This document shows positions 6,440-57,295 of a stretch of DNA of 64,000 nucleotides, in pieces. Both the position numbers and the translations under genes were made by a program. Position 1 is the stretch's first letter. The number at the start of each line of letters is the position of its first letter. The notes under the pieces are model-generated. The model was not told the DNA's origin, did no database searches, and worked only from the letters and a program-made list of their open reading frames with translations. Location of the stretch: positions 35,836,001 to 35,900,000 of the forward strand of contig OX597827.1 in the NCBI GenBank assembly GCA_951406725.2, in the 5' to 3' direction. This stretch comes from Octopus vulgaris (Eukaryota).

Positions 6440-9400
6440 CCCACCACCAGTACCAGACGTCCATATCCTCTGACAGCCTTCAGTTGTCTCCCATGAAGAC
6501 TTCTGAAGGCTTAATCCCATCCCCACCCCTACTTAGGCTCTATCTCCTATGTAAGGTTGTGATCATATAGTACATAAAAATGATAGTGTAGTGTATGCAG
6601 GTTGAAGTCTGTTGTTTGTTTATGAATTCTGCCAAATGTGAGCTTTCTTTTCAGGTACAAGACACTGCTGTCCCCCATCCCAGGGTCACACGGGCCCACA
6701 CCTCCACACCCTCGGGGTTGGCACAGTGAAAGGTAGGTCTGGTGAGATTGTTGAGATGCTTGAATGGGGATGTGTAGATTAGCACTGCATCCAAGATGTA
6801 AGGTGGAGAGAAGACTCTGCTAGGTTTCTCACAGGCAAAGAACATAGATACAAGATCTTCTGGGCAGGGAACACTGATGGGATTGGGAGCGTGGGTATAC
6901 TTCTTGCAGAGAAATGGGTTGATAAGGTAATCGAGGTCGTGAGAGTCTGCAATAGAATACTTAGGATTAGATTAGTACTACATTATGGGTTAGCTACCAT
7001 TATCTTAGCCTATGCCCCTCAGCCAGGGCTACCTGATGGACAGAAAGACCAATTTTATGACACTCTCTTGCTAACTACATCGTCGACGAATGACAGGGAC
7101 CTTCTCTTTGTGGCTGGTGATTTCAATGGACATGTTGGACAACATGCAGGGGCCTTCCATGGCATACATGGAGGCTATGGTTTTGATTCCCACAATGAGG
7201 AGGGAACCAGGCTGCTGGAGTTCTATGATGCAAATGATCTTGTGGTTTGCAATACTAACTTCAGGAAACCTACCAGTCACCTAGTCACCTACCGATCTGG
7301 TAGACACACTAGTCAGATTGACTACATCCTCACCAGGAAAAGGGAAAGAGGGCTACTTATAAATGCCAAAACCTTCCCAGGCGAAGAATGTACCCCGCAA
7401 CATAGACTGGTAGTTAGTGACTTCAGGATCAGAGCTAAATGGATGCCCAGAAGATGACCAGCATTGGAGGAGAAGGGTCTGGAAGCTTAAAGATCCTGTG
7501 AATGGACAGAAATTTTGAAACATATTACTCAAAGCTTTTGACGAAATAGAGGGGGATATAGCATCACATGACATGGAAGACAACTGGAGGTTTCTACGGA
7601 ACAACCTGCTGAGGGCCACTGACCAGATCTGTGGATGGTGCAAAGTCCCCCCTCGACCCAAGGTAACATCGTGGTGAGACAATGTTGTTGACAGGGCCAT
7701 TAGAGAAAAGAAACAGGCTTGGAAGAACGGTGGTGGCAGGGAATCATATCAGACTGCCAAAAGGGAAGCTAGGAGACAGTTTATTTAGCTAGGGGCAAAG
7801 CAGATAAAAAATGTGCCGTGAGGACCAAAGACTTAAGGTATTCTATGCTGCGAGACAGTGTGTGAGAGAGAATCGTGATGTGGTAAGAGAGAAATGTATT
7901 TGCATGGATGATGGTTCACTTGCTTTAAACGAGGCTGCAAAGAGAGAGGTATAGAGACGCCACTATGAAAAGTTGCTAAATAAAGAGAATGAAATGGGAG
8001 AAAGAGAGCCTGCCAAATGCCGACCCAACAGAGGGACCAGCTATCCGAATTGACAGTGCCTTGGTAGATAAAGCAATTAAGGTTATGAAGACAGGGAAAG
8101 CCCCTGGCCCATCAGGAATCACTGCAGAGATGCTCAAAATATCTGACAGTGTTGGCTATAGCCTAGTCACCCATATAGTCAACCAGGTGATATATGAATT
8201 TGTCACACCCAATGACTGGTGTAGCAGCACCATAGTCTACTGCTACAAAGGTAAAGGTGACGCATTAGATACAAATAATTACAGAGGTATCAAGCTGCTG
8301 GATCAGGTAATGAAAGTCACAGAAAGGGTTGTAGCCCAACTAATTAGGGAGAGGGTCAATCTAGATGAGATGCAGTTTGGATTTGTGCCAGAGAAAAGCA
8401 CCACTGATGCTATATTTCTGGTAAGACAGCTACAGGAGAAATACCTAGCCAAAGATAAACCCTTGTACCTAGCTTTCGTTGACATGGAGAAAGCTTTTGA
8501 CAGGATCCCCTGATCCCTTATTTGGTGATCAATGAGGAAACTAGGGATATATGAATGGTTAGAGCTGTACAAGCCATGTACAGGGACACTGTCAGTAAGG
8601 TGAGGGTTGGCAACGAGTACAGTGAGGAATTCCAGATAGAGGTAGGAGTCCTCCAAGGTTCAGTCCTCAGCCCCCTCCTATTTATCATAGTCCTCCGGGC
8701 AATAACAGAGGAATTCAAGACAGGAGGCTCCTGGGAGCTCCTCTATGCTGATGACCTTGCTCTAATTGCTGAGTCACTATCAGAACTAGAGGAGACTTTT
8801 CAAGTGTGGAAGCAATGATTAGAATCAAAGGGCCTTAGAGTCAACCTAGCTAAAACCAAATTCCTAATAAGTAGGAAGGTAGACAAATCACAAATCCCTT
8901 CAGGTAGATGGTCTTGCTCGATCTATAGAAAAGGTGTAGGTAGAAACTCTATAAGATGTACCCAGTGTAAGCTATGGACACATAAGAGGTGCAGCGATAT
9001 CAAAGGAAGGCTAACTGGGAAGATAGTTTTTATATGTGGCATATGCTCAGGAGCAATAAGCACTGAAAATATGCAGAGAACAACTTCTGTCACATTCCAG
9101 GGAGAAAAACTAGAAGTAGTTGACAGCTTCCATTACCTAGGTGACCAAGTCAGTATTTGGGGTGGATGCTCTGAATGTGTAGCTGCTAGAATAAGAACAG
9201 CCTGGTCAAAGTTCAGAAAGCTCCTACCTCTGCTGGTGACAAAGGGCCTCAAGCTCAGAGTAAAAGGTAGACTATATGATGCATGTGTACAAACAGCCAT
9301 GCTACATGGCAGTGAAACATGGGCTGTGAGTGCTGAGGACATGCGTAAGCTTGCAAGGAATAAAGCCAGAATGCTCCACTGGATGTGTAATGTCAGTGTG

Positions 9401-19293: not shown

Positions 19294-19440
19294 GTTGCTG
19301 GACATTCTCAACCAGGTGATGTTTTTGCTGTGATTTCAAAATGGGATCTTGCATTCTCTCATCTGTTATTGCATCATTGAACGCTTCAACATCAGAATTC
19401 AACCCAACAGAAACTAAAAGATTATTTCGGTAGTAAGAAT

Positions 19441-20844
19441 ATGGACTCGCTAGCAGCCGACACCCAGCAAATGCCTTGCCCAACTGCAGACTTATCAGTA
19501 ACAGCTTCCCAGAAGCCGTACTCTGGGGTTACTTCCCCTCTAGTATCACCCGATGTTCCAACTTGTTATTCACAGTTACCCCCCTTGCCTGTATTGCCAT
19601 CTGATGGCACTCCACCGGATAACTGCCAAAAATTAAACTCGGGGAACAATTCAAACCGAGTACAAGTGAAAACAGATCCGGGGGAGATGACTAACCCAGA
19701 AAGTACATCGACCAAAAAAAAGTCATCGACAAAAAGCTCTGAAAAACCTTTCAATTGCACCATGTGTGGGCAGCACTTTGCACGTAAAGACACTCTGCAG
19801 TGTCACAAGCGGACACATACTGGCGAGAGACCATACTCTTGCGATTCGTGTCCATTACATTTTGCCCGACGCGATACGCTGCAGTGCCACCGTCGAACTC
19901 ATAGCGGTGAGCGTAGGTTCACTTGTGAAGTGTGCCTGCAGAAGTTTGCTCGCAGGGACACACTCCACTGCCACCAGCGGACTCACAGCGGTGACAAGCC
20001 ATTCAGCTGTGACTTGTGCATTCAGAAATTCGCCCGACGTGACACCCTGCTCTGTCATAGACGAACACATTCTGGTGAGAAACCGTTCGTGTGTCAGTTT
20101 TGCGGGAAAAGGTTTGCACGCACAGACAAGCTGCACCGTCACAAGCGCACCCATCTTCGAGGTAATCCCACCACAACACCTGGCTCTCATTATAATCAGA
20201 ATACAGCATCTAACTTAAGTGCTGGTAACAACCTGCATTGCAACAACAGCAGTTGCAACAGTAGCAACTGCAGCCTTAGTGCTATGCAAGGTCCTTGCAA
20301 TGACAATTGCCTAAATTACAACAATAGTAGCTCAGGTGCAAATACACCATGTACGAGTGCACTCTGTAATAGCTCAATGGGTTGCACCTACCACTGTAAT
20401 GGTAGTGGATGCAATCAGGTAATTCCTGCAAATGTGCAGTGCAATGTATCAGGGTGCAATGGAATTTCATGTAACAGTAACATTTCCAACAGTGTGCCAT
20501 GCTGCCCAAACATGATCAACACAAGCGGTTCTTGTGGAAACAGCAACATGTGCCTCACTTCCAACAGCCCCCAGTGCCATGACAGAAGTTCTGCATCTGT
20601 CAGCACAGACACTACAACTGCCTCTTCTGTGGCACCCACCTCTCTTCCTGCTGCTTCAGGTTGCGGTGGTCAGACCGTCGTGCTTTCCCACCATTCATCA
20701 CAGCCTACAGCTGTAATGACAACTTCAGCAGCTCCAATGTTCACGACCAACTCCACCAACAACCTCACCAGCACAGGAACACTACAGAAACCTGATCGGT
20801 TCCAAGCCAATTCAGCCAACCAAATATGGCAGATATTCTACTGA
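19441..20844 (+). CDS. C2H2 zinc-finger protein, 467 aa, single coding exon: 5 tandem fingers followed by a Cys/Asn/Ser-rich low-complexity tail
   Basis: Uninterrupted 1.4 kb ORF with five C-x2-C-x12-H-x3-H units joined by TGERP/SGERR/SGDKP/SGEKP linkers; polypyrimidine tract + AG acceptor ending 19293 upstream; AATAAA candidates at ~21307 and ~21352. Confidence 0.93.
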   Translation: MDSLAADTQQMPCPTADLSVTASQKPYSGVTSPLVSPDVPTCYSQLPPLPVLPSDGTPPDNCQKLNSGNNSNRVQVKTDPGEMTNPESTSTKKKSSTKSSEKPFNCTMCGQHFARKDTLQCHKRTHTGERPYSCDSCPLHFARRDTLQCHRRTHSGERRFTCEVCLQKFARRDTLHCHQRTHSGDKPFSCDLCIQKFARRDTLLCHRRTHSGEKPFVCQFCGKRFARTDKLHRHKRTHLRGNPTTTPGSHYNQNTASNLSAGNNLHCNNSSCNSSNCSLSAMQGPCNDNCLNYNNSSSGANTPCTSALCNSSMGCTYHCNGSGCNQVIPANVQCNVSGCNGISCNSNISNSVPCCPNMINTSGSCGNSNMCLTSNSPQCHDRSSASVSTDTTTASSVAPTSLPAASGCGGQTVVLSHHSSQPTAVMTTSAAPMFTTNSTNNLTSTGTLQKPDRFQANSANQIWQIFY

Positions 20845-31405: not shown

Positions 31406-31727
31406 AAAGTATATCATTGTAAAGTGAAATGGAAAGGAAAGAGAGAAGACATTACAATAATAATTGAAAACAACAACAAAAAAACCCTTGATGTTCCTTA
31501 CTCTATAAGATTTGGACCTTATTAGTAGTGGGGACCTAACACCGGTTCCAACGCAAACACACAGACAACTCCCCTCCAGTGGGCGAAAAAAATTCCAGCT
31601 CAAAACAAGAAGAGACGGCACTGACGAAAGGTAAACAAAGCATTCATATCATATTTCTTCTTTCTCTTCTTCCTTATTCCTCTCATTCAACACGCTCATA
31701 TAAGTGCACACACTCATACATATATGC

Positions 31728-39257: not shown

Positions 39258-42200
39258 ATGTCCCCATCATCAGGATGATGCACTCCTTGGTGGCTGCCAT
39301 CATACTTGATTCTTTATTGCCTACCAGGGGCCAACACAGATGGGACATTACAATCTCAGAGGTCAGACACAACGAAATGAAATTTAGAAAAGAAATGCAG
39401 TTAAAAATTTACATGCAATGAATGATAACAACACAACAGACAACACAAATGGTGTGGTGTTTGGGTTCAGCTCCAACCTCACAAGCCCCAATTCACCATT
39501 GATATCTTTAAGACACTTTATGGCATATTCACACGGTTACAACCACTCTCAACACTTGTGCTACATATTTCCATCTTTTGTTAAACATTTTCTCCGACAG
39601 ATACCTCATCTCCAGCCCTATTTTCCTTTTCAAATGAAAAGTAAAATACCTTTGCAAGGCAAAGCCAGAGATAAAGCTGCCTGTCATTACTCCTTTCATC
39701 CTTGTCTTCCATGCCACCTCTTTCGCTAATGCTACTAGGGTGAGAAAACAATTCTTACCTTCATTCGACAGAAAATCAGGCAGGTCAGTTTTCATAATTG
39801 TCTCAGTCGATAGCTGTATTCTTCTTGTACCTGACAACAGATGTTCCACATAAGCCCACATCTCTGACACCCCTGGACACTGAACAATAGCATGAGGGAC
39901 TGTTTCCCTATCCAGCTCACATCTTGGGCGGGTTGGCGCGTCGCATTGACCATGTTTTGCAAGCTTATCCTGAATGGGCAAGACTCTTCTGTGATATTGC
40001 TAGGTCAAGGACTTTTGGAAGTTATCCAGTATCCTCAACCCAAATGTATAGAAAAACAGGCTGTCGAGATGAATATACCCAAGACCCAAAGTCTCCCCCA
40101 GGGCATCGTTACATCCAGCCTCTACTAACCCTCTACAGAAAAATGCTGTAGAACCACCACCACTGGCATTTCCTGAGTGATGGAATAGCAGGAGCACCTT
40201 GTGACACTCCATATGCCACTCACTCAACCAAGATCTACAAAAGCACCAGGCTTCCCGTCCACTGAAACCAGTGAATGAGGGAAACATCTGTTTCGCCAGC
40301 AGAGACCACACCAGTTCACCATCCAGAAGAATCCAGAGATGCCTCAACCTCAGCACATGTGCATCAACAGCCAAGGCATCCCTAGTCCTCCTTTTAACAG
40401 TCTTTGACAGCAAATAGAGTTTTACAAGTGGCTTCAAGCCCTTCCACAAAAAGTGAAAGCGCTGTCTTTCCAACTTGATCAACCATGAATCTGGGCAAGG
40501 AACAATGGTTAGGCGGTAGGTAATGACCAATGCGATGAACACATTCCCTTTCGCCCTCCCTTTCAGGGACAGCCACTGCCAAGACCAGGTCCTGACTATG
40601 TGAGCCACCCTGCTCGAAACCTCGTCTTAATTCTCTACCTGGAGGTCTGGACCAAACCAGACCCCTAGCAACTTAACCGGGACCCCCCGTCCAATGTCCT
40701 ACAATGCTGTCTGAAGGCATTGACTTGCTCCTCCAGTTGCCGAGTTGCAAGCTGACTGATTATTCCTGGTTAATCTTTGCTCCTGCCACTGTCTTATAAT
40801 CCTCAATGGCCTTGCCTACCCTTGTAGGTATTCCATTTTGGTCATGCTGATGGTGATGTCATCCACATAAGCTGAAACCTACTCTCCACATCCTGGCTCT
40901 CTCAGGATGCCACTCAACCTTTGCAGTAACGGCTTAAGAGCCATCACATACATAAGTGTGAGAGTGGGCACCCTTGGTGAACCGAGCATTTGATACAGAA
41001 CAGTTTTGATAGAAAACCATTCACCTGAATGATCAAGTCAATGTTTTCATACAATTGTATAATCCACCTAAGGAAGCCAAGACTTAGGCCAAACTGTGCA
41101 AGAACAGTCACCAGGTAATGATGGTCAATCCTATCAAAAGCTTTAGATTGGTATAAATTTACCAATGCCCCACCTTTGCCAGATTTACTCTCAAACCCTT
41201 CTAAGGTGTAGCAGAGAAGGTGGAGATTGTCCTGGTTACTTTTGCTGGGAATGGCACATGTCTGTGCTTCCCCGATCAGACCATCCACGACGTGTGCCAA
41301 CCTTTTTGCTAGCACCTTGGCCAAAATCTTCACTTCTGAATTTAATAGAGTGATGGGCCGGAAATTATCCATATGATCCCCCTTGCCCGGGTCCTTTCTG
41401 ATCAGTGTCACCACTCCCCAGCGCACAGATCTGGAAATAAACCCATTCTGTTGCCAGTTCGCATATACACTAGTCAGCAGGTGCCCAAACAAGTCTGGCA
41501 TACACTTATATAACTCGTAGGGTAGACCATCCAGTCCCGGTGACTTACCTACGCCACAGTCTGCCAAAGCCTCAATCACCTCCTCGGGTGTGATCAGCCC
41601 TTTACAAGACTCCGCATCCTGCCCTGAGAAGCACAGCAGCCGAGAAAAGAAGTCTGCAAAGTCCCTCCTACCATCCTGTCCATCGCTCCCCATAAAAGGT
41701 GGGTGGAGTGCTCATAAAAAGCCTCACACATTTCCTCGGGTTTGTTTATCAATACACCTTGATGATTTACCAAAGATCAAACTGTGGAATCATTTCCACA
41801 TTGAGCTTCCACTTGGGTCCATCCAGCGGCCTTGATCCTTTTGTAACCCACTGCACATAGTCTAGCCCTGACAATGCACCCCATGTATTGGGTTTCAAGG
41901 AGCTGGTTTAATTCCTGTCTCTTCGCCCTCACCTAGTCTGCACTGCCATTCCTCATGGCTTCCTCTAAGTTCTTAACTAGACCCTCTTCTTCCTTACATT
42001 CCTTAGCCACTAAATTTATGCTATACCGAATAGACTCAAATTTTATCACTCATTTTAGGGCATACCACCATTAGTTGTTAATGATGGCTCCTATTAATAC
42101 CGTCTGAATTATCAACTTAATCCACTTTCTGTACTCCTCAATCACCAACAGGGATGCATTGAGTTTCCAGTAGCCAGATCCCTGTCTATGTACCTTATCT

Positions 42201-43500
42201 AAGTTCAGAGTACAGATAACCATCTTGTGATCACTGTAGCTGACTGGATAAAACTGTGGACACTTAATTATGCGCTTGTCTACTTTTCTAATTAAAATCT
42301 TATCTATATATGATCTGGAAGACCTGTTGTTATTTGACCGTGTACACAATGGAGCGTCCAAGTGTTCCAGCCTATATGGATCTGCTAGCTGAAAATGACT
42401 TAGCAGATCCCGGAAGCCAAAGTTACATATCCTATGAAGTCTCAAGTCAACACAATCTATGCGTGCATTGCAGATTGTTTTAAAGTCTCCTAGAAAAATT
42501 AAAGGATGTGACATGCCTAGAAATTTCTCTAGGTCACAAAAATACTCACTTTTTTTACCAGAAGCATTGGGTGCATAAATTGCAACCAGCCTGATCATCT
42601 TGCCACAACTGACTGTCAAGTCCAAAATGACCAGTCTACCTTTTGGATCAGAAAAAATTAACCTTTTCTCCGAAACCTGGTTTCTTTTTAATAGGACCAA
42701 CACCCCACCCCACCTGTCACCTGACACAGAGAAATGTATTTCTTGTAGCTGTTCAGCAGAGGGAGCAGATCTCTTGGCCCCTTCAACCGGGCTTCTTTGC
42801 AACAATTACATCCAAATTTTGTGATGCCATTTAGGAAGCGCCCTTGTTCCATCTCGGCATCAGCCACATACATTCAAACAACCAATGTGAATTGCCATAT
42901 CTTACCTCAATTTTTTTTCTTTATTCCATGGTATCAGGTGGAGGGGAGTCTCCACCTCTTCTTTTTTCTTGGTTCATGGGATCAGAGTAGGTAGTCCTTC
43001 AAAAATTGAAGGTAAAAAGTCTTTCCTTATCGTCCCTCCAGAAACCCTAAAGTTATTACTTTGGATTCTGTAGTTTTTCAAGTCTGTCTCATAAATGTCA
43101 TAGTTTTTGTATTTCTCCGAATGCTCATCATTCCTTATGGCAGTTTTAATCACCTTCGCGCTTCTTACTAGTTCAACGTTATCTGTTTTTATAGCTACTA
43201 AGCCCTTTTCTTCTTTCTTTTCTTTTTTTGCCATCTTCTTTGGCCTCTTGTCCGATGGTAGTTTTGGTTGGTGCTGTAGGATGCTTCTTTCTTTTGTTGC
43301 CTGCTTGGTTCTCTGTTTTCTTTTCCTCTTCCTCCTCTTCTCCTTCTTTGCACTTAGCACGGATGTGCCCCAGTTCACCACACTAGAAACACTGTGGCTT
43401 CCAACCCTCCACAAACACTACAAGGTTTTCATCCCATCTCTATTTTTTTTCAGGGATTTCCTCCAATATTTGCAGCTCTGCTTGAATTATTAAATTGACT
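39257..43500 (-). mobile_element. Decayed near full-length L1/Tx1-clade LINE (ORF1 CCHC knuckle; ORF2 APE-RT-zinc motif)
   Basis: ORF1 CF*CGELGHIRAKC at 43350-43391; APE GRLVILD, IYAPN, LGDF, YSDH, GYWKLN; RT KSPGLDGLPYE, NFRPITLLN, KAFDRI, QGCPLS; C-terminal RC...ETVPHAIVQC; minus-strand AATAAA at 39313-39318. Confidence 0.9.
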
Positions 43501-44086: not shown

Positions 44087-45900
44087 GAGAATAACAAGGA
44101 AGTCAGAATGTTGGATGATCATATACATTTTTATTTACATTTTTAGCGCTTTCTTCTGTTACCTGATTTGTCAAAAAAGTGGTTTGCTTTACCTTTTTAT
44201 ATAAAATTGAAACTGATGAAGTTTTAGAGAGGGCGAGAAAGAATGGGAGGAAAAATTAGAAAGGAAGGTACAGGGGATGAGAGAGGAGAGAGTGGGAGAT
44301 AATGAAGATAGGGAAAACAAAGTAGAAGGATTGTGTTTTGGGAATGTATTGTTTTTGTGGGGTTTGCCAAGGAAGCGAAAAGAAAGAAGAAAAAGTTTGA
44401 GGAGAAGTAGAGGAGGCGTGGCTTTTGCATCAGTGTGGTCAGACTTTTTGATTCCACCTATTGACCTTTTGGGTGGGAAAGAAAAGGAATTTTTGTATTC
44501 AAGTGGTCAAAGTTTTTAATTGGAAAACCCAGATGTTGTTTTCCATTTTCTCCAGTAAAAATTATAATTACATTTCAAGGTCTTGTTTTTTAATTCTTTT
44601 GTATTCATTAATGTTAAGGGGAGAGAATGGTATGGCTATGTTTTTGAAAACATAGCCATACACAGCTAATTCAAAAACAACATCTGGAATTTTAATCAAA
44701 AATGTTGACCACATCTACACAACCATTCTCTCCCCTTTAATGAATACAAAAGAATTAAAATACAAGACCTTGAAATATAATTATAATTCTTACTGGAAAA
44801 AATCAAAAACACCATCTGGTTTTCTAATTAAGAACTTTAACCACTTGGATACAAAAATTCCTTTTCTTTCCTACCCAAAAGGTCACTAAGTAGAGGAAAA
44901 TAACATATTGAATCTTAATCAAACACTGATACAAAAGCCATGCCTCCTCTACCTCCCCTCCTTCTCAAATTTTTCTCTTCTTTCTTTTCCCTTCCTTGGA
45001 AAACCCCCAAAATACACTGCTACTTTCTTTTCTCTTCTTGATCTTCACTATCTCCTCCTCTTTCACTCCTGCATCTTCCTTTCTAATTTGTCCCCCCCCC
45101 CCCTCTCTTTCTTTCTAAAACATCAGTTTCAATTTTATATCAAAAGGCAAAGTAAACTTACTGTTAACCACTTTTTTGATAAATCTCATAACTGAAGAGA
45201 GTGCTAAAAAATGTTAATCAAAATAAATATAATCATCCAACATTCTGATTACCTTATTATTCTCAATATAGTGTTAAAAATGTAAATATTTTTATTTACA
45301 TTTTTAGCACTTTCTTCCATTACCAGATTTATCAAAAAGATGGTTTCTGATGATGATTTACGAAGAGGGAGGGGAGAGAGCCCCCAAAATCAGAAACCTT
45401 AAAAAACAACTCACAAGAGAACAAAACATTCTCTGTAAAGGAATGTGGAGACAGTAGATGGGGACACCCACATAAAATTTAAAAGGGGATTCTTATTCAA
45501 AATAAATGCAAATATGAGCTGCAAGACACAAAACCTCATATACTGCATTACTTGCTCCAAATGCAAGGAGAATTGTATTGATGAAACCAATAATTCCCTT
45601 TGCCAACGCGCAAGAATCCACAGACAGTACATCTGACAAGAAGAGCTATGGAAGATTCCACTGAGCAAACATTTGAAAATATATGGAGAAAGAAGATTCA
45701 CATCCTCCCCTTTTACAAATGCTTAAGGAATGACCCAAACTTCTGAAAAACAATGGAGCTACACTTGAAAAAGAAATTCTCATGAAAATTAAATGGATGG
45801 AAAAAGGAAACATTTGGAAATATGTGGAGAAGGAAAATTCAAAGTTCTGAAAGATAATGGAACTATACTTCACAAAAGAAGTCCTCAACAAAAACTAACA
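44087..45900. mobile_element. Penelope-like element pieces: 1.18 kb inverted pair of 3' ends plus a GIY-YIG endonuclease fragment (45420-45900, +)
   Basis: SCKTQNLIYCITCSKCKENCIDET..L.QR...HR matches the PLE GIY-YIG pattern; 44087-44630 is the imperfect reverse complement of 44720-45265. Confidence 0.75.
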
Positions 45901-46600: not shown

Positions 46601-46900
46601 CATCATCATCATTGTTTAACGTCCGCTCTCCATGTTAGCATGGGTTGGACGGTTCAACTGGGGTCTGGAAAGCCAGAAGGCTGCACCAGGCCCAGTCTGA
46701 TCTGGCAGTGTTTCTACAGCTGGGTGCCCTTCCTAACGCCAACCACTCCATGAGTGTAGTGGGTGCTTTTTACATGCCAGACAAGGGTGGCAAACGGCCA
46801 CGATCGGATGGTGCTGTTTACGTGCCCAGTTGAGGCTGGCAACGGCCACAATCAGATGGTGCTTTTTATGTGCCACTGGTACGGAGGCCAGTCAGGGCGG
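46601..46900 (-). mobile_element. 5'-truncated RTE 3' end
   Basis: catcatcatcattgtttaacgtccgc... is the reverse complement of the RTE tail. Confidence 0.85.
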
Positions 46901-47140
46901 TGCTATATATACATATATATACTTATATATACATATATATACTTATATATACATATATATATAAATATATATATGTATATTAATAGTTATCGCCAAGCTA
47001 ATATGGTAGTCTATAAATAAAAGACTAAAGCTGCCGCTGATTAGCTCCAAGAGGCCATCGCCTCTAGCTAGCTATATGACACACGAACCTGCGTCCATTA
47101 TAACCTTCGAACAGGGGAGGTCAGCCGCTTCACCTTGCTG

Positions 47141-47202
47141 GTCAGACATCTGCAGACATGTTTCAGGGTAGTTGCCCTTTATCAATGCAGGGTAGTCAGA
47201 CT
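47141..47202 (-). ncRNA. Type I minimal hammerhead ribozyme motif (U3-A8 core variant), PLE-type
   Basis: Minus strand reads GTCTGAC-TACC-CTGCA-TTGATAA-A-AGGG-CAACTA-CCCT-GAAA-CATG-TC-TGCAG-AT-GTCTGAC: stems I and II pair, palindromic loop 3, GUC triplet. Confidence 0.75.
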
Positions 47203-47269
47203 CTTTTTTCCACCTTGTTTCACATTTATGTGTTTACTCCGGTATGTATGTATATATGTGAGAACAGTC

Positions 47270-47763
47270 AGAATCAAAATCAAAATGAAAATCAAACCAA
47301 ATCAAATCAGATATCAAAAAGCAGAACCAAAATTGAGGTCGATCAACATCAGTGGAAGTTGCAGCTGTGGTTAAGCGAACCATCCGATCATGGCCGTTGC
47401 CGGCACGTAAAAGCACCATCCGCTCGTGTCCGTTGCCAGCCTCGCCTGGCCCCCGTGCTGGTGGCACGTAAAAGCACCATCCGTTCATGTCTGTTGCCAG
47501 CCACGCCTGGCCCCCGTGCCGGTGGCACGTAAAAACACCATCCGTTCGTGGCCGTTTGCCAGCTCCGTCTGGCACCTGTGCGGGTGGCACGTAAAAAGCA
47601 CCCATTACACTCACGGAGTGGTTGGCGTTAGGAAGGGCATCCAGCCGTAGAAACACTGCCAGATCTGACTGGGCCTGATGCAGCCTTCCGGCTTCACAGA
47701 CCCCCAGTTGAACCGTCCAACCCATGCTAGCATGTAAAACGGACGCTAAATGATGATGATGAT
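47270..47763 (+). mobile_element. Young 5'-truncated RTE 3' end with ~4 tandem 61-bp UTR repeats
   Basis: ggcacgtaaa at 47402, 47463, 47524, 47586; CpGs retained; (GAT)n tail. Confidence 0.85.
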
Positions 47764-54390: not shown

Positions 54391-56509
54391 ACATAATTCT
54401 GTGTGTGTTTAAGAATGATATAACAAGGATGGAGGGCATCAAGCTTTAATCTACTGTTAAAGCCTGTTATCCTCCATCCTCATATTATTCTTGTATTAAT
54501 TTTATGTAAAGAGGGGTTCCACGTGTGTATCCCACCCTGGAATATATCCTACTGTAGGATAACATGTGGTAGCCAAATAACAACACAAGAGCTCTTAACT
54601 GCACATAATGAGGGTTTTACCAAAATTATACTAAATGTATATGTATGTATTTATGTGTGTATGAATGAACGATAATTACGTATGTCTAGAATACTCAGCC
54701 ACTTATATGTTAATTTCATGGCCAGGCTGTTCCATTGCTCAAATCCACAGGAACATTCATAACCAATGGAGTGCCCAGCCAAATTGGGGAATTCAGTTGA
54801 TCAAACAACAGAATCTTCATTGACAAACAATGGAAAACTATCCATCCAGCCACATATATTTATGTACACTCACAGGGTTACTCGTAAGGTTTCTAGGACC
54901 CTGGGTACTCTGAATTTCTTTCCTTCAATATATACTTTTAAAATGTTTTGACAAAAAGTAAAAATTGCAAAAATTGAACATAGAGCTACAAATTTATTGA
55001 ATGTAATAATTAAATGTTTTATCTTATTTGTTATTTTCATTTTTTTTCCTTATGTATTTCTTGGAATATCCCATAGAACATTGTGCTCTGTACCACATGG
55101 TCCCCTGGGTGACTGCCTAAGTTGCTGATAACTTCAACTGACCATGCATGCATGCGCACATACACACATTTTCTTATATTTTAAAATTACTGACACAACA
55201 CTGTTTCGTTTTGATACAATAATGTACTATAGAATAAATCTATACATTTTAGCCAACACTGCATATGTGAATTAAACTTAATTAAATAGATTTGGCTATT
55301 GTAAAAAAAATGCTTTTTTTCATATAATTTCTATTGCTTTGTAGACTGGAAGAGAGGAATCAGCTATACTGGTTTCAATTCTTTATTTGAGATTTCATAA
55401 ACAACTGAGTACCTGCATATAAATGTTCACAGGGATACACACACACACATCATTATCATCATTGTCCCTGTTCCATGCTGGTATGGTTTGGATGGCTTGA
55501 CAAGGATTTGATGAGTCCAAGGGCTGCATCATGTGCCAGTATTTGCTGTAGTATGGTGTTTCCATGGATACCCTCTCTAAGGTTAACCTGTTTAAAGTGT
55601 GTACTGTGTTAGATATATGTATAGATATATATTTTGCTAATATATATGTACACACACACATACACACGCACACACAACCACTATTATTGAAGGCTCCACT
55701 AAATCAGATAAATTGAATTACTAATTTAATTTATTTATTTACTAGCCATTAAGAATGTTTTATGGGGGGGGGGGCTGACTTTTTTTCTTTTTTCTTTTTT
55801 TTTTTTTGTAGGAGAGTAGATTTAAGGGAGATTTGGTTGCTGATTCTAACAGATCAGTCAACTGCACAGAGGGTGTCCTGCAACATTGCTGTAAAAATCA
55901 ATAAAGGATCTATCTGCTAGCAGTACTGTGTTAAAACTCTCTTTTTGGTTTGAGTCTTGATAGAAATGTTAGCCATGCTGTTGTGTTGGTAACTATTTTA
56001 GATTGAATCAGAAAATGTGTGAATTAATTTGTTATCCAACTGAAAAAGTAAACAAATTTCTAGAGTCAGCAGAGCATTTATTAGATAGAATGTCTCCCGG
56101 TATTTATTGTACAGTTGGCAATTAACTTTGATTTTTATTCATTCAGGGTCAATAAAATAAATTACCAGTCCAAGGTGATGGATTGGTGGAACTGTGAGAC
56201 CGTCAGGCTGGATGCCTTGTGATATTTATTTCAGATCCTTGTGTTCTGAGTTCAAATCCTGCTATGACCTACTTGCATAGCAGACTTAATTCATCCCCTG
56301 GCTTAGTACCACCACTTAGTGCATTGGTTACTTTTAGAAGAGTCCACTTTGTTGCAAACTTTCAGGTTAAGCTTCCGATTTAAGAATACTTATCTCCAAT
56401 CTCCTCACAAATCATGTGAAGAGTCAGGGGCAGCTTTCCCTCTTCACTAAAATGATAAAATAAATAAATAACTGAAAATTCTCTTTCAATCTTATTCTCT
56501 TAATTCTCT

Positions 56510-56550
56510 TTAATCTTAAATATTTTTCTTCTTTATTTTTGTATTTTTAG
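56510..56550 (+). other. 3' splice acceptor of the coding exon of zinc-finger gene 2
   Basis: tatttttcttctttatttttgtatttttag|gttgc immediately upstream of the ORF. Confidence 0.8.
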
Positions 56551-56560
56551 GTTGCGGAAT

Positions 56561-57295
56561 ATGTATCCTGGTCAGTCAGTCTATACCATGAGCCAAAAAT
56601 TCTCCTGTGACGAATGTGATGAAGCATTTCCTTTGTATGACCTGTTGAAAGCCCACATCCGCACAACCCATTCATTGGCTTCACAACAGCAACGTAGTTA
56701 TTGCTGCGCAATCTGCAACAAAGCTTTCACACAGAGAACAAACCTGCGTACACATGAAAGAGTGCACTCTGGTGAAAGACCCTACAAATGTGCGATGTGT
56801 TCCAAGGCATTTTACCAACGTACCAATCTACGAAATCACATACGAACTCACACAAACGAGCGACCTTATACTTGCACTGTATGTGGGCGTGCCTTCACTC
56901 AGCGAGGTAATTTGTACCTTCATGAAAGAATTCATTCTGGTATTCGTCCATTTCAGTGCAACATTTGTGAGCGAGCATTCTCGCAGAAGGGTAACCTTAA
57001 AAGCCACCTGCGCACACATGAGCGCAAGAAGGATGCAGGAAAGAACTATTCTAAAGTTGAGGGGAATAACATTACTGCATTTGCGTGTGGCGAGTGTGGA
57101 AAAGCATTCCAGCGCCAGTCCTTGCTTAAGTGTCATGAAAAAACACACCAACTTGAACAGCAATCACTGAAACAGAAAGGATGTGAGGATAAGGAAGAAG
57201 ACATGACATTGAGTAACTACAAACAAAGTGGTATATCTCAAGCTGTCTTTCCTGATACATCTTCACCCTTGCTCCTGAGAATCACCACAAAATGA
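56561..57295 (+). CDS. C2H2 zinc-finger protein, ~244 aa, 6 fingers (4 in a linked tandem array)
   Basis: Intact ORF with CDEC..HIRTTH, four linked fingers (SGERP, TNERP, SGIRP linkers) and a sixth CGEC..HEKTH; strong acceptor ...ttttgtatttttag ending 56550; first ATG at 56561 (the ORF track starts at an upstream TTG). Confidence 0.92.
   Translation: MYPGQSVYTMSQKFSCDECDEAFPLYDLLKAHIRTTHSLASQQQRSYCCAICNKAFTQRTNLRTHERVHSGERPYKCAMCSKAFYQRTNLRNHIRTHTNERPYTCTVCGRAFTQRGNLYLHERIHSGIRPFQCNICERAFSQKGNLKSHLRTHERKKDAGKNYSKVEGNNITAFACGECGKAFQRQSLLKCHEKTHQLEQQSLKQKGCEDKEEDMTLSNYKQSGISQAVFPDTSSPLLLRITTK

Follow-up and report, generated by a model that had tools for sequence, protein, structure and literature searches.

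A window of 64,000 nucleotides from the genome of Octopus vulgaris, which is the whole stretch of DNA analysed here, contains on its minus strand a sequence resembling a self-cleaving RNA in which both partners of a core base pair are exchanged. The locus raises the question of whether this is a genuine hammerhead motif, to what kind of element it belongs and how that element came to be inserted where it is. The motif, which can be read directly from the sequence, occupies 61 nt at 47141-47201 (minus strand); the initial annotation had found the motif itself, though with an end at 47202 instead of 47201 and one surplus A in the string. It consists of distal stem I, a UAC internal loop, proximal stem I, the core, stem II and a palindromic loop 3. 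Proximal stem I has 5 bp in the window motif, the sixth pair being a C.A mismatch that is present in 1 of 111 copies; in most subfamilies of the family described below stem I has 6 bp, and in one subfamily the sixth position is a G.A mismatch. The core U3-U4-G5-A6-U7-A8-A9 lies at 47179-47185 (minus strand), with U3 at 47185 and A8 at 47180, and A9 directly precedes stem II with no bulged base. Stem II (47165-47178, minus strand) is formed of 4 bp, closed by A10.1-U11.1, and carries a 6-nt loop 2, CAACUA, which is CAAAUA or CAACAA in other subfamilies. G12 to A15.1 are found at 47161-47164, and the self-complementary ACAUGU running from A15.1 to U16.1 at 47156-47161, both on the minus strand; this is the palindrome already recognised in loop 3, and a palindrome is retained in all three families, as ACUAGU in families B and C. 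Taken alone the window motif would have a stem III of 2-3 bp, and a dimer is predicted in which stem III forms between two copies through the palindrome, with a predicted duplex energy of −6.0 kcal/mol. Dimeric hammerhead variants of Penelope-like elements (PLEs) were reportedly the subject of a 2017 paper. From the hammerhead consensus, cleavage is predicted after GUC between 47154 and 47155 (minus strand), C17 being 47155, in agreement with the site proposed originally.

All of the type I core positions (U4 G5 A6, A9, G12 A13 A14 A15.1 and U16.1 H17) are present in the motif, positions 3 and 8 form a Watson-Crick pair, stems I and II form and covary, and stem I is the open helix. All 15 stem pairs are predicted with pair probabilities of 0.85-1.0, and the hammerhead fold, at −15.0 kcal/mol, is at most 0.3 from the MFE. 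The stability of the isolated 61-mer is modest (z −2.25, with 7 of 200 shuffles folding equally well); in full copies stem I runs on for about 30 further pairs, giving z values of −5.4 and −6.0 with 0 of 200 shuffles as stable in each case. A relaxed descriptor allowing any Watson-Crick 3-8 pair, applied to both strands of the window, gave the motif as its sole match, compared with 0.03 loose matches per window and no strict match in 30 block-shuffled windows. A near match to CUGACGA at 31616 was rejected as a hammerhead, being without hammerhead stems. As a matter of sequence and predicted fold, the well-formed hammerhead that had been proposed is thus confirmed as a genuine type I motif with a compensatory U3-A8 pair. 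While a pattern allowing U3-A8 finds it, as anticipated, the Rfam models, put forward as another route to the same end, reported no hammerhead in the window; since the Rfam scan also failed to report a C3-G8 relative of the motif as a hammerhead, the U3-A8 exchange is not the cause of the miss.

The motif is carried by a 5′-truncated copy of a 362-nt retrozyme unit at 46977-47201 (minus strand), covering unit positions 316 to 178 and 95.9% identical to the reference unit, L019, over 217 nt. The copy begins at the distal part of stem I, and its final few bases are common to the (TA)n microsatellite at 46904-46980, the insertion target at the retrozyme 3′ end. The element had been drawn at about 47010-47260; 47200-47245 (plus strand) is instead the 3′ tail of another repeat, element 2, which meets the retrozyme arm head-to-head and overlaps it by 2 nt. 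Element 2 has its own C3-G8 hammerhead-like motif and forms two-armed inserts in (TA)n. Its inserts (L076:2904-3135) are short, young and palindromic, the motif having a bulged A and a very short stem II, with U4C in some copies; a search for a parent of element 2 found none. The rest of element 2 is absent from the far side of the window insertion, and the join is the sole case among 128 sequences containing the retrozyme, overlaps included. The simplest reading would be a single event primed on two RNAs, one arm deriving from the retrozyme and the second likely from a different RNA of the PLE type, which would imply shared machinery, although a deletion between two neighbouring inserts is also possible. 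With its single ribozyme the window copy is probably unable to make a monomer, and is probably an inert by-product.

A decayed PLE GIY-YIG fragment at 45478-45675 (plus strand), 39% identical to the 781-aa protein discussed below and interrupted by a stop, is located 1.3 kb from the retrozyme copy. The insertion is flanked by inverted copies of a common repeat (46602-46891 and 47446-47763, 78% identical) that has internal subrepeats of 48 and 61 bp, and two fragmented LINE-type elements with endonuclease and reverse transcriptase (RT) pieces are found at 6783-8513 (plus strand) and 39529-42805 (minus strand). C2H2 zinc-finger frames flank the insertion at 19381-20844 and 56504-57295, both of them plus-strand; because the ribozyme is encoded on the other strand it would leave their transcripts uncut, if it were intronic.

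The source genome (2.8 Gb in 227 contigs) was searched for further copies. Starting from the window region, 2584 first-look candidates were obtained, 40 of which were scored. An exact 30-mer containing U3-A8 has 435 matches in the genome and the same-context C3-G8 version has none, while a 34-mer with the U3-A8 core has 961 matches at up to three mismatches. In 30 loci picked for a core check by a mid-unit pattern outside the ribozyme, all 21 complete cores obtained are U3-A8, with a private change at U4 or G5 in three of them. Contigs of four organisms cover the unit, with no difference at positions 3 and 8 among the 40 of 89 rows listed, a comparison in which ends, strand and circles are beyond reach and in which a joint that goes back 362 is expected from tandem DNA too. 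The family is one of about 1000 copies of a non-coding repeat of about 360 bases with a U3-A8 hammerhead, rather than the CUGAUGA family that the initial annotation had named as the outcome that would count against it. The core itself is not novel, U3-A8 being already published in both PMC3088659 and PMC4209133; the retrozyme family itself was not found in print, though an earlier entry for it may exist. In the literature listings and passages searched, no paper was found on this family or on any U3-A8 retrozyme, nor was any cephalopod retrozyme family, and PMC5680766 makes no mention of octopus.

The unit is a 362-nt non-coding sequence repeated head-to-tail, with a cut-to-cut spacing of 360-365 nt, one type I hammerhead in each unit and no ORF of its own, as the initial suggestion of a retrozyme-like unit would have it. 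A non-coding, ORF-less head-to-tail unit of 150-450 bp, with duplications of more than 4 bp where these occur, is what characterises non-LTR retrozymes, for which a GC content below about 45-50% and expression as linear and circular monomer RNA are further described traits; here duplications of 11-14 bp flank 4 of the 7 single-arm inserts tested. Insertions were mapped in 40 loci picked solely for an intact ribozyme 34-mer and comprising 68 arms, the base after the cut being numbered 1. Most arms (54 of 68) end at two fixed internal sites, 26 at unit positions 170-178 and 28 at 228-238, and (TA)n adjoins 40 of these 54 ends; none of the 68 arms ends at the cut. The arrangement is head-to-head in 22 of the 40 loci. 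Arms longer than one unit number 24 of 68, the longest being 944 nt or 2.6 units, and no large array was present in the 40 loci, four of which have two same-strand hammerheads one unit apart. Among the copies picked by the mid-unit pattern, 25 of 30 extend 5′ across the cut and two begin 3-4 nt after it. None of the 30 starts exactly at the cut, and a linear cleaved monomer was rejected as the main template on this ground. Variants found in no more than 3 of 82 loci were counted as rare. Successive units of one arm share them at 11 of 5329 positions; for the paired arms of a locus the figure is 21 of 7418, and for a comparison with the nearest other locus it is 2 of 22,978. A circular template would explain both the shared variants and the arms longer than one unit, though local duplication or gene conversion could instead account for the shared variants. 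It is this insertion anatomy that is the new part of the finding, and it would fit priming of the Penelope type with a likely circular RNA as template.

The family, the length of its unit, its core, the covariation of its stems and the insertion anatomy are all seen in the copies themselves, and we consider it probable that the window motif is a hammerhead from a truncated non-LTR retrozyme copy and that tandem transcripts of this retrozyme self-cleave, likely circularise and are likely copied into (TA)n by a PLE. A retrozyme cycle with a PLE as the proposed helper has been described (PMC7229834). Transcripts containing two hammerheads would be likely to cleave, as dimers via the palindrome, although in one study eight of nine predicted frog retrozyme dimers were uncleaved in vitro (bioRxiv 10.64898/2026.07.22.740005). 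The resulting monomers would, on balance, be ligated into circles. Machinery of the PLE type is very likely to be responsible for the next step, in which an endonuclease/RT would nick AT-rich DNA on one or both strands. Copying would then start at either of the two fixed internal sites, about 175 and about 235 nt after the cut, and continue over the ribozyme junction for as much as 2.6 units, with scattered stops giving rise to permuted and often head-to-head inserts. Partial tandems with an inverted truncated copy are reported for PLE inserts (PMC8557442), and internal RT initiation, both-strand priming and AT-rich targets for a PLE assayed in vitro (PMC11167929).

The same family and the same PLE-type mobilisation would also be expected if a few source loci supplied uncleaved tandem transcripts as the template, with circles not an intermediate and the ribozyme active solely at those loci, or inactive while insertion takes place. 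Read-through of the cut site is equally consistent with uncleaved RNA, which was the dominant substrate of the PLE assayed in vitro (PMC11167929). Scattered 5′ truncation would, however, shorten such linear sources at each generation, and no long array is present in the 40 loci, where no arm exceeds 944 nt. Moreover, the rate at which variants are shared within an arm (11/5329) is about that between the arms of one insertion (21/7418). We regard an uncleaved template as rather unlikely.

Returning to the circular template, a candidate for the PLE that would copy it was sought by a genome search for GIY-YIG domains. This gave 6136 candidates and, of the 150 scored, 16 are in open frames of 781 aa. 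Two copies were read whole and have RT and GIY-YIG domains and the linker finger of Neptune/Nematis; we call them Neptune-type as a shorthand, since they agree with the definition of Neptune/Nematis and the two were not separated by a tree. They represent an intact and very young PLE (L233:1342-4895, in G000:C17:42762500-42767500, and L234, in G000:C5:1040600-1045600) with two overlapping frames and a U3-A8 hammerhead near the 3′ end. ORF2 is 98.6% identical between the two copies, and the upstream frame is at least 472 aa in one of them. A diverged relative (L222) has a similar core. In 17 of 30 GIY-YIG loci a minimal-looking hammerhead with a UUGAUAA core and the ACAUGU palindrome is located 3′ of the ORF, and the same 17 then terminate in (TA)n at either of two positions. 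This motif has 1152 exact matches in the genome, with 8 head-to-head and no tail-to-tail pairs within 5 kb among 100 matches listed, and its predicted fold is weak (z −0.58). Other (TA)n-ending PLE families occur in the genome, and Naiads, which favour (TA)n, have been reported from Octopus (PMC8557442).

That the intact Neptune-type family is the helper has, in our estimate, a little short of an even chance. A closer coupling can be imagined, a matched helper-parasite pair in which the intact PLE would copy the retrozyme circle from two internal starts and the shared U3-A8 core would be functionally significant, either through recognition of the core by the helper or through slowed cleavage that allows circles to persist; this we think unlikely. 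Both core changes follow the AT bias, so that convergence on U3-A8 is plausible, and the C3-G8 core of family C counts against a direct link between the retrozyme and the Neptune-type element. On the sense strand of the PLE 3′ region there is no clear homology to the unit outside the core, and derivation of the unit from this region was rejected as no match there is consistent. A weak match in the antisense direction, close to start site 2 and seen between two of three family A units and one PLE subfamily, was treated as chance, being inconsistent in B or C and lying in AT-rich DNA. Heterodimers of retrozyme and PLE ribozymes were rejected by reasoning, as the stem I strands are not complementary, and no retrozyme arm is joined to a Neptune-type tail in the loci examined. 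Were the matched pair true, the enzyme moving an animal retrozyme would be identified, and there would be genomic evidence for rolling-circle target-primed reverse transcription.

It had also been suggested that the window copy is a solo pseudo-LTR, the unit then being the pseudo-LTR or tail of an unsampled autonomous PLE. The insertion anatomy is PLE-like, U3-A8 is known in PLE hammerheads (PMC4209133) and pieces of Neptune-like ORF occur near the unit in five of the places examined, two judged from coordinates only and one being directly joined. At this direct join (L072:2826-4050) a retrozyme arm abuts the 5′ part of the ORF, and the junction is present twice in inverted orientation. Against this, the unit follows itself head-to-tail without an ORF, and the ORF matches are scattered, with no repeated ORF-unit arrangement in 134 loci (570 kb) and the window. 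No unit was found flanking a PLE ORF in these 134 loci, in 16 Poseidon-type regions or in the 30 GIY-YIG loci. Both the Poseidon-type and Neptune-type families carry other terminal sequences, and the 16 Poseidon-type regions have no similarity to the unit. On this sample of the genome a pseudo-LTR is quite improbable. The Poseidon-type family (L138-L153) is an older one, rejected as parent or helper on account of its broken frames and its copies being about 87% identical to the query copy L006, which has itself received a retrozyme insertion, accompanied by an 11-bp duplication. A third repeat (L145, L147, L148, L151, L002 and L140) has a classic minimal hammerhead with C3-G8, a bulged A, a 6-bp stem II and an ACGU palindrome.

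Whether the hammerhead of the retrozyme has been maintained can be judged from its relatives. Family B (114 pattern matches) is about 80% identical to family A, and family C (nine matches to a relaxed C3-G8 pattern, with a spacing of 343 nt) about 60% identical, with a C3-G8 core and compensatory stems. For an alignment, 34 ribozymes of A and B (one later assigned to C) were taken from 16 of 30 family A-search loci and 18 of 25 family B-pattern loci, overlapping, truncated and gapped ones being omitted. In this alignment 90.5% of cells are paired, 11 pairs have changes in both partners and U3-A8 is found in 31 of 33 distinct rows; of five covariation measures that for further pair types is not above shuffles (480/500), and shuffle controls on related sequences overstate significance. 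Across six subfamily majorities none of 10 fixed core positions varies, compared with 72 of 155 downstream positions, a core figure inflated by the family B and C search patterns, which fixed part of the core. In B the patterns placed no constraint on positions 3-9 or on the 5′ strands of stems I and II, and in C none on stem I. All six majorities keep 12 of the 13 pairs in the stems and palindrome, and positions 3 and 8 switch together, being C-G in family C; the U3-A8 pair proposed for the window copy is shared across its family. In a tree of 43 copies, rooted at the midpoint without an outgroup, C is split from A and B (100/100) and A forms a ladder of successively younger subfamilies; such a rooting gives no direction to the C3-G8/U3-A8 switch. 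As read from these alignments, the hammerhead structure has been conserved while the sequence changed.

This bears on the possibility that the hammerhead is a vestige, crippled by U3-A8 and A10.1-U11.1, and that the repeat spreads without cleavage. Both changes do deviate from the usual consensus and many predicted retrozymes are silent in vitro (bioRxiv 10.64898/2026.07.22.740005), but the stems and palindrome stayed paired through later subfamily changes, a stem I pair changed from U-A to G-C inside the U3-A8 clade and U3-A8 ribozymes are reported to be active in vitro (PMC3088659), making a vestige highly improbable. Chance, whether as an accidental motif or as a fortuitous double mutation in a CUGAUGA family, can be dismissed despite C-to-T and G-to-A being common decay changes, given the 435 exact matches against none, the 21 of 21 U3-A8 cores and the lack of strict matches in 30 shuffles.

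The probable retrozyme resembles the metazoan non-LTR retrozymes of coral, mussel and axolotl (PMC7229834) in its non-coding unit within 150-450 bp, tandem copies, canonical type I hammerhead, duplications of more than 4 bp and the presence of PLEs in the same genome; families have been reported from frogs also (bioRxiv 10.64898/2026.07.22.740005). It differs from the metazoan ones in having U3-A8 throughout and two fixed internal 3′ ends, and in that its copies are mostly dispersed, permuted or head-to-head inserts of 0.2-2.6 units and not long arrays. Circles have been shown for the metazoan retrozymes in 2020 (PMC7229834) and are predicted for the octopus family. With the minimal hammerheads of Schistosoma mansoni (PMC4209133), where U3-A8 has about 1300 matches, the motif shares covariation of positions 3 and 8, a palindromic 15.2-16.2 region and predicted dimeric cleavage. 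Those ribozymes occur in pseudo-LTRs, and minimal hammerheads are defined there by a helix II of 7-8 bp, a bulge between 9 and 10.1 (after A9), a short helix I and an ill-defined loop 1. The octopus motif, in contrast, has a 4-bp helix II with a 6-nt loop 2, no bulge, a UAC loop and a long stem I extension within an ORF-less tandem unit, and its initial description as minimal does not apply. The exchange of C3-G8 for U3-A8 is also found in the hammerheads of Perreault et al, 2011 (PMC3088659), as a natural covariation reported there, from another paper, to be active in vitro; these are several separate examples, as opposed to a mobile family of a thousand copies that has a C3-G8 sister. The Poseidon PLE of Anolis, as studied in vitro (PMC11167929), is similar to the octopus family in its internal RT starts, AT-rich targets, both-strand priming and copies running through the hammerhead, but it is autonomous and protein-coding, while the octopus unit, having no coding capacity, would depend on a protein of this kind supplied in trans.

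The C3-G8 and U3-A8 sister families provide a natural pair for the effect of the swap on cleavage, and the more than 2000 U3-A8 motifs in one genome, 961 of the retrozyme and 1152 of the PLE, are invisible to CUGANGA searches. The interest of the locus lies in the insertion record and the candidate helper rather than in the swapped core alone. Both PMC7229834 and bioRxiv 10.64898/2026.07.22.740005 treat as open questions the identity of the enzyme that mobilises animal retrozymes and the role of circles as its template. The young and dispersed octopus family records where copying started and stopped, and with an intact candidate helper in the same genome the question of mobilisation is open to an existing in vitro assay.
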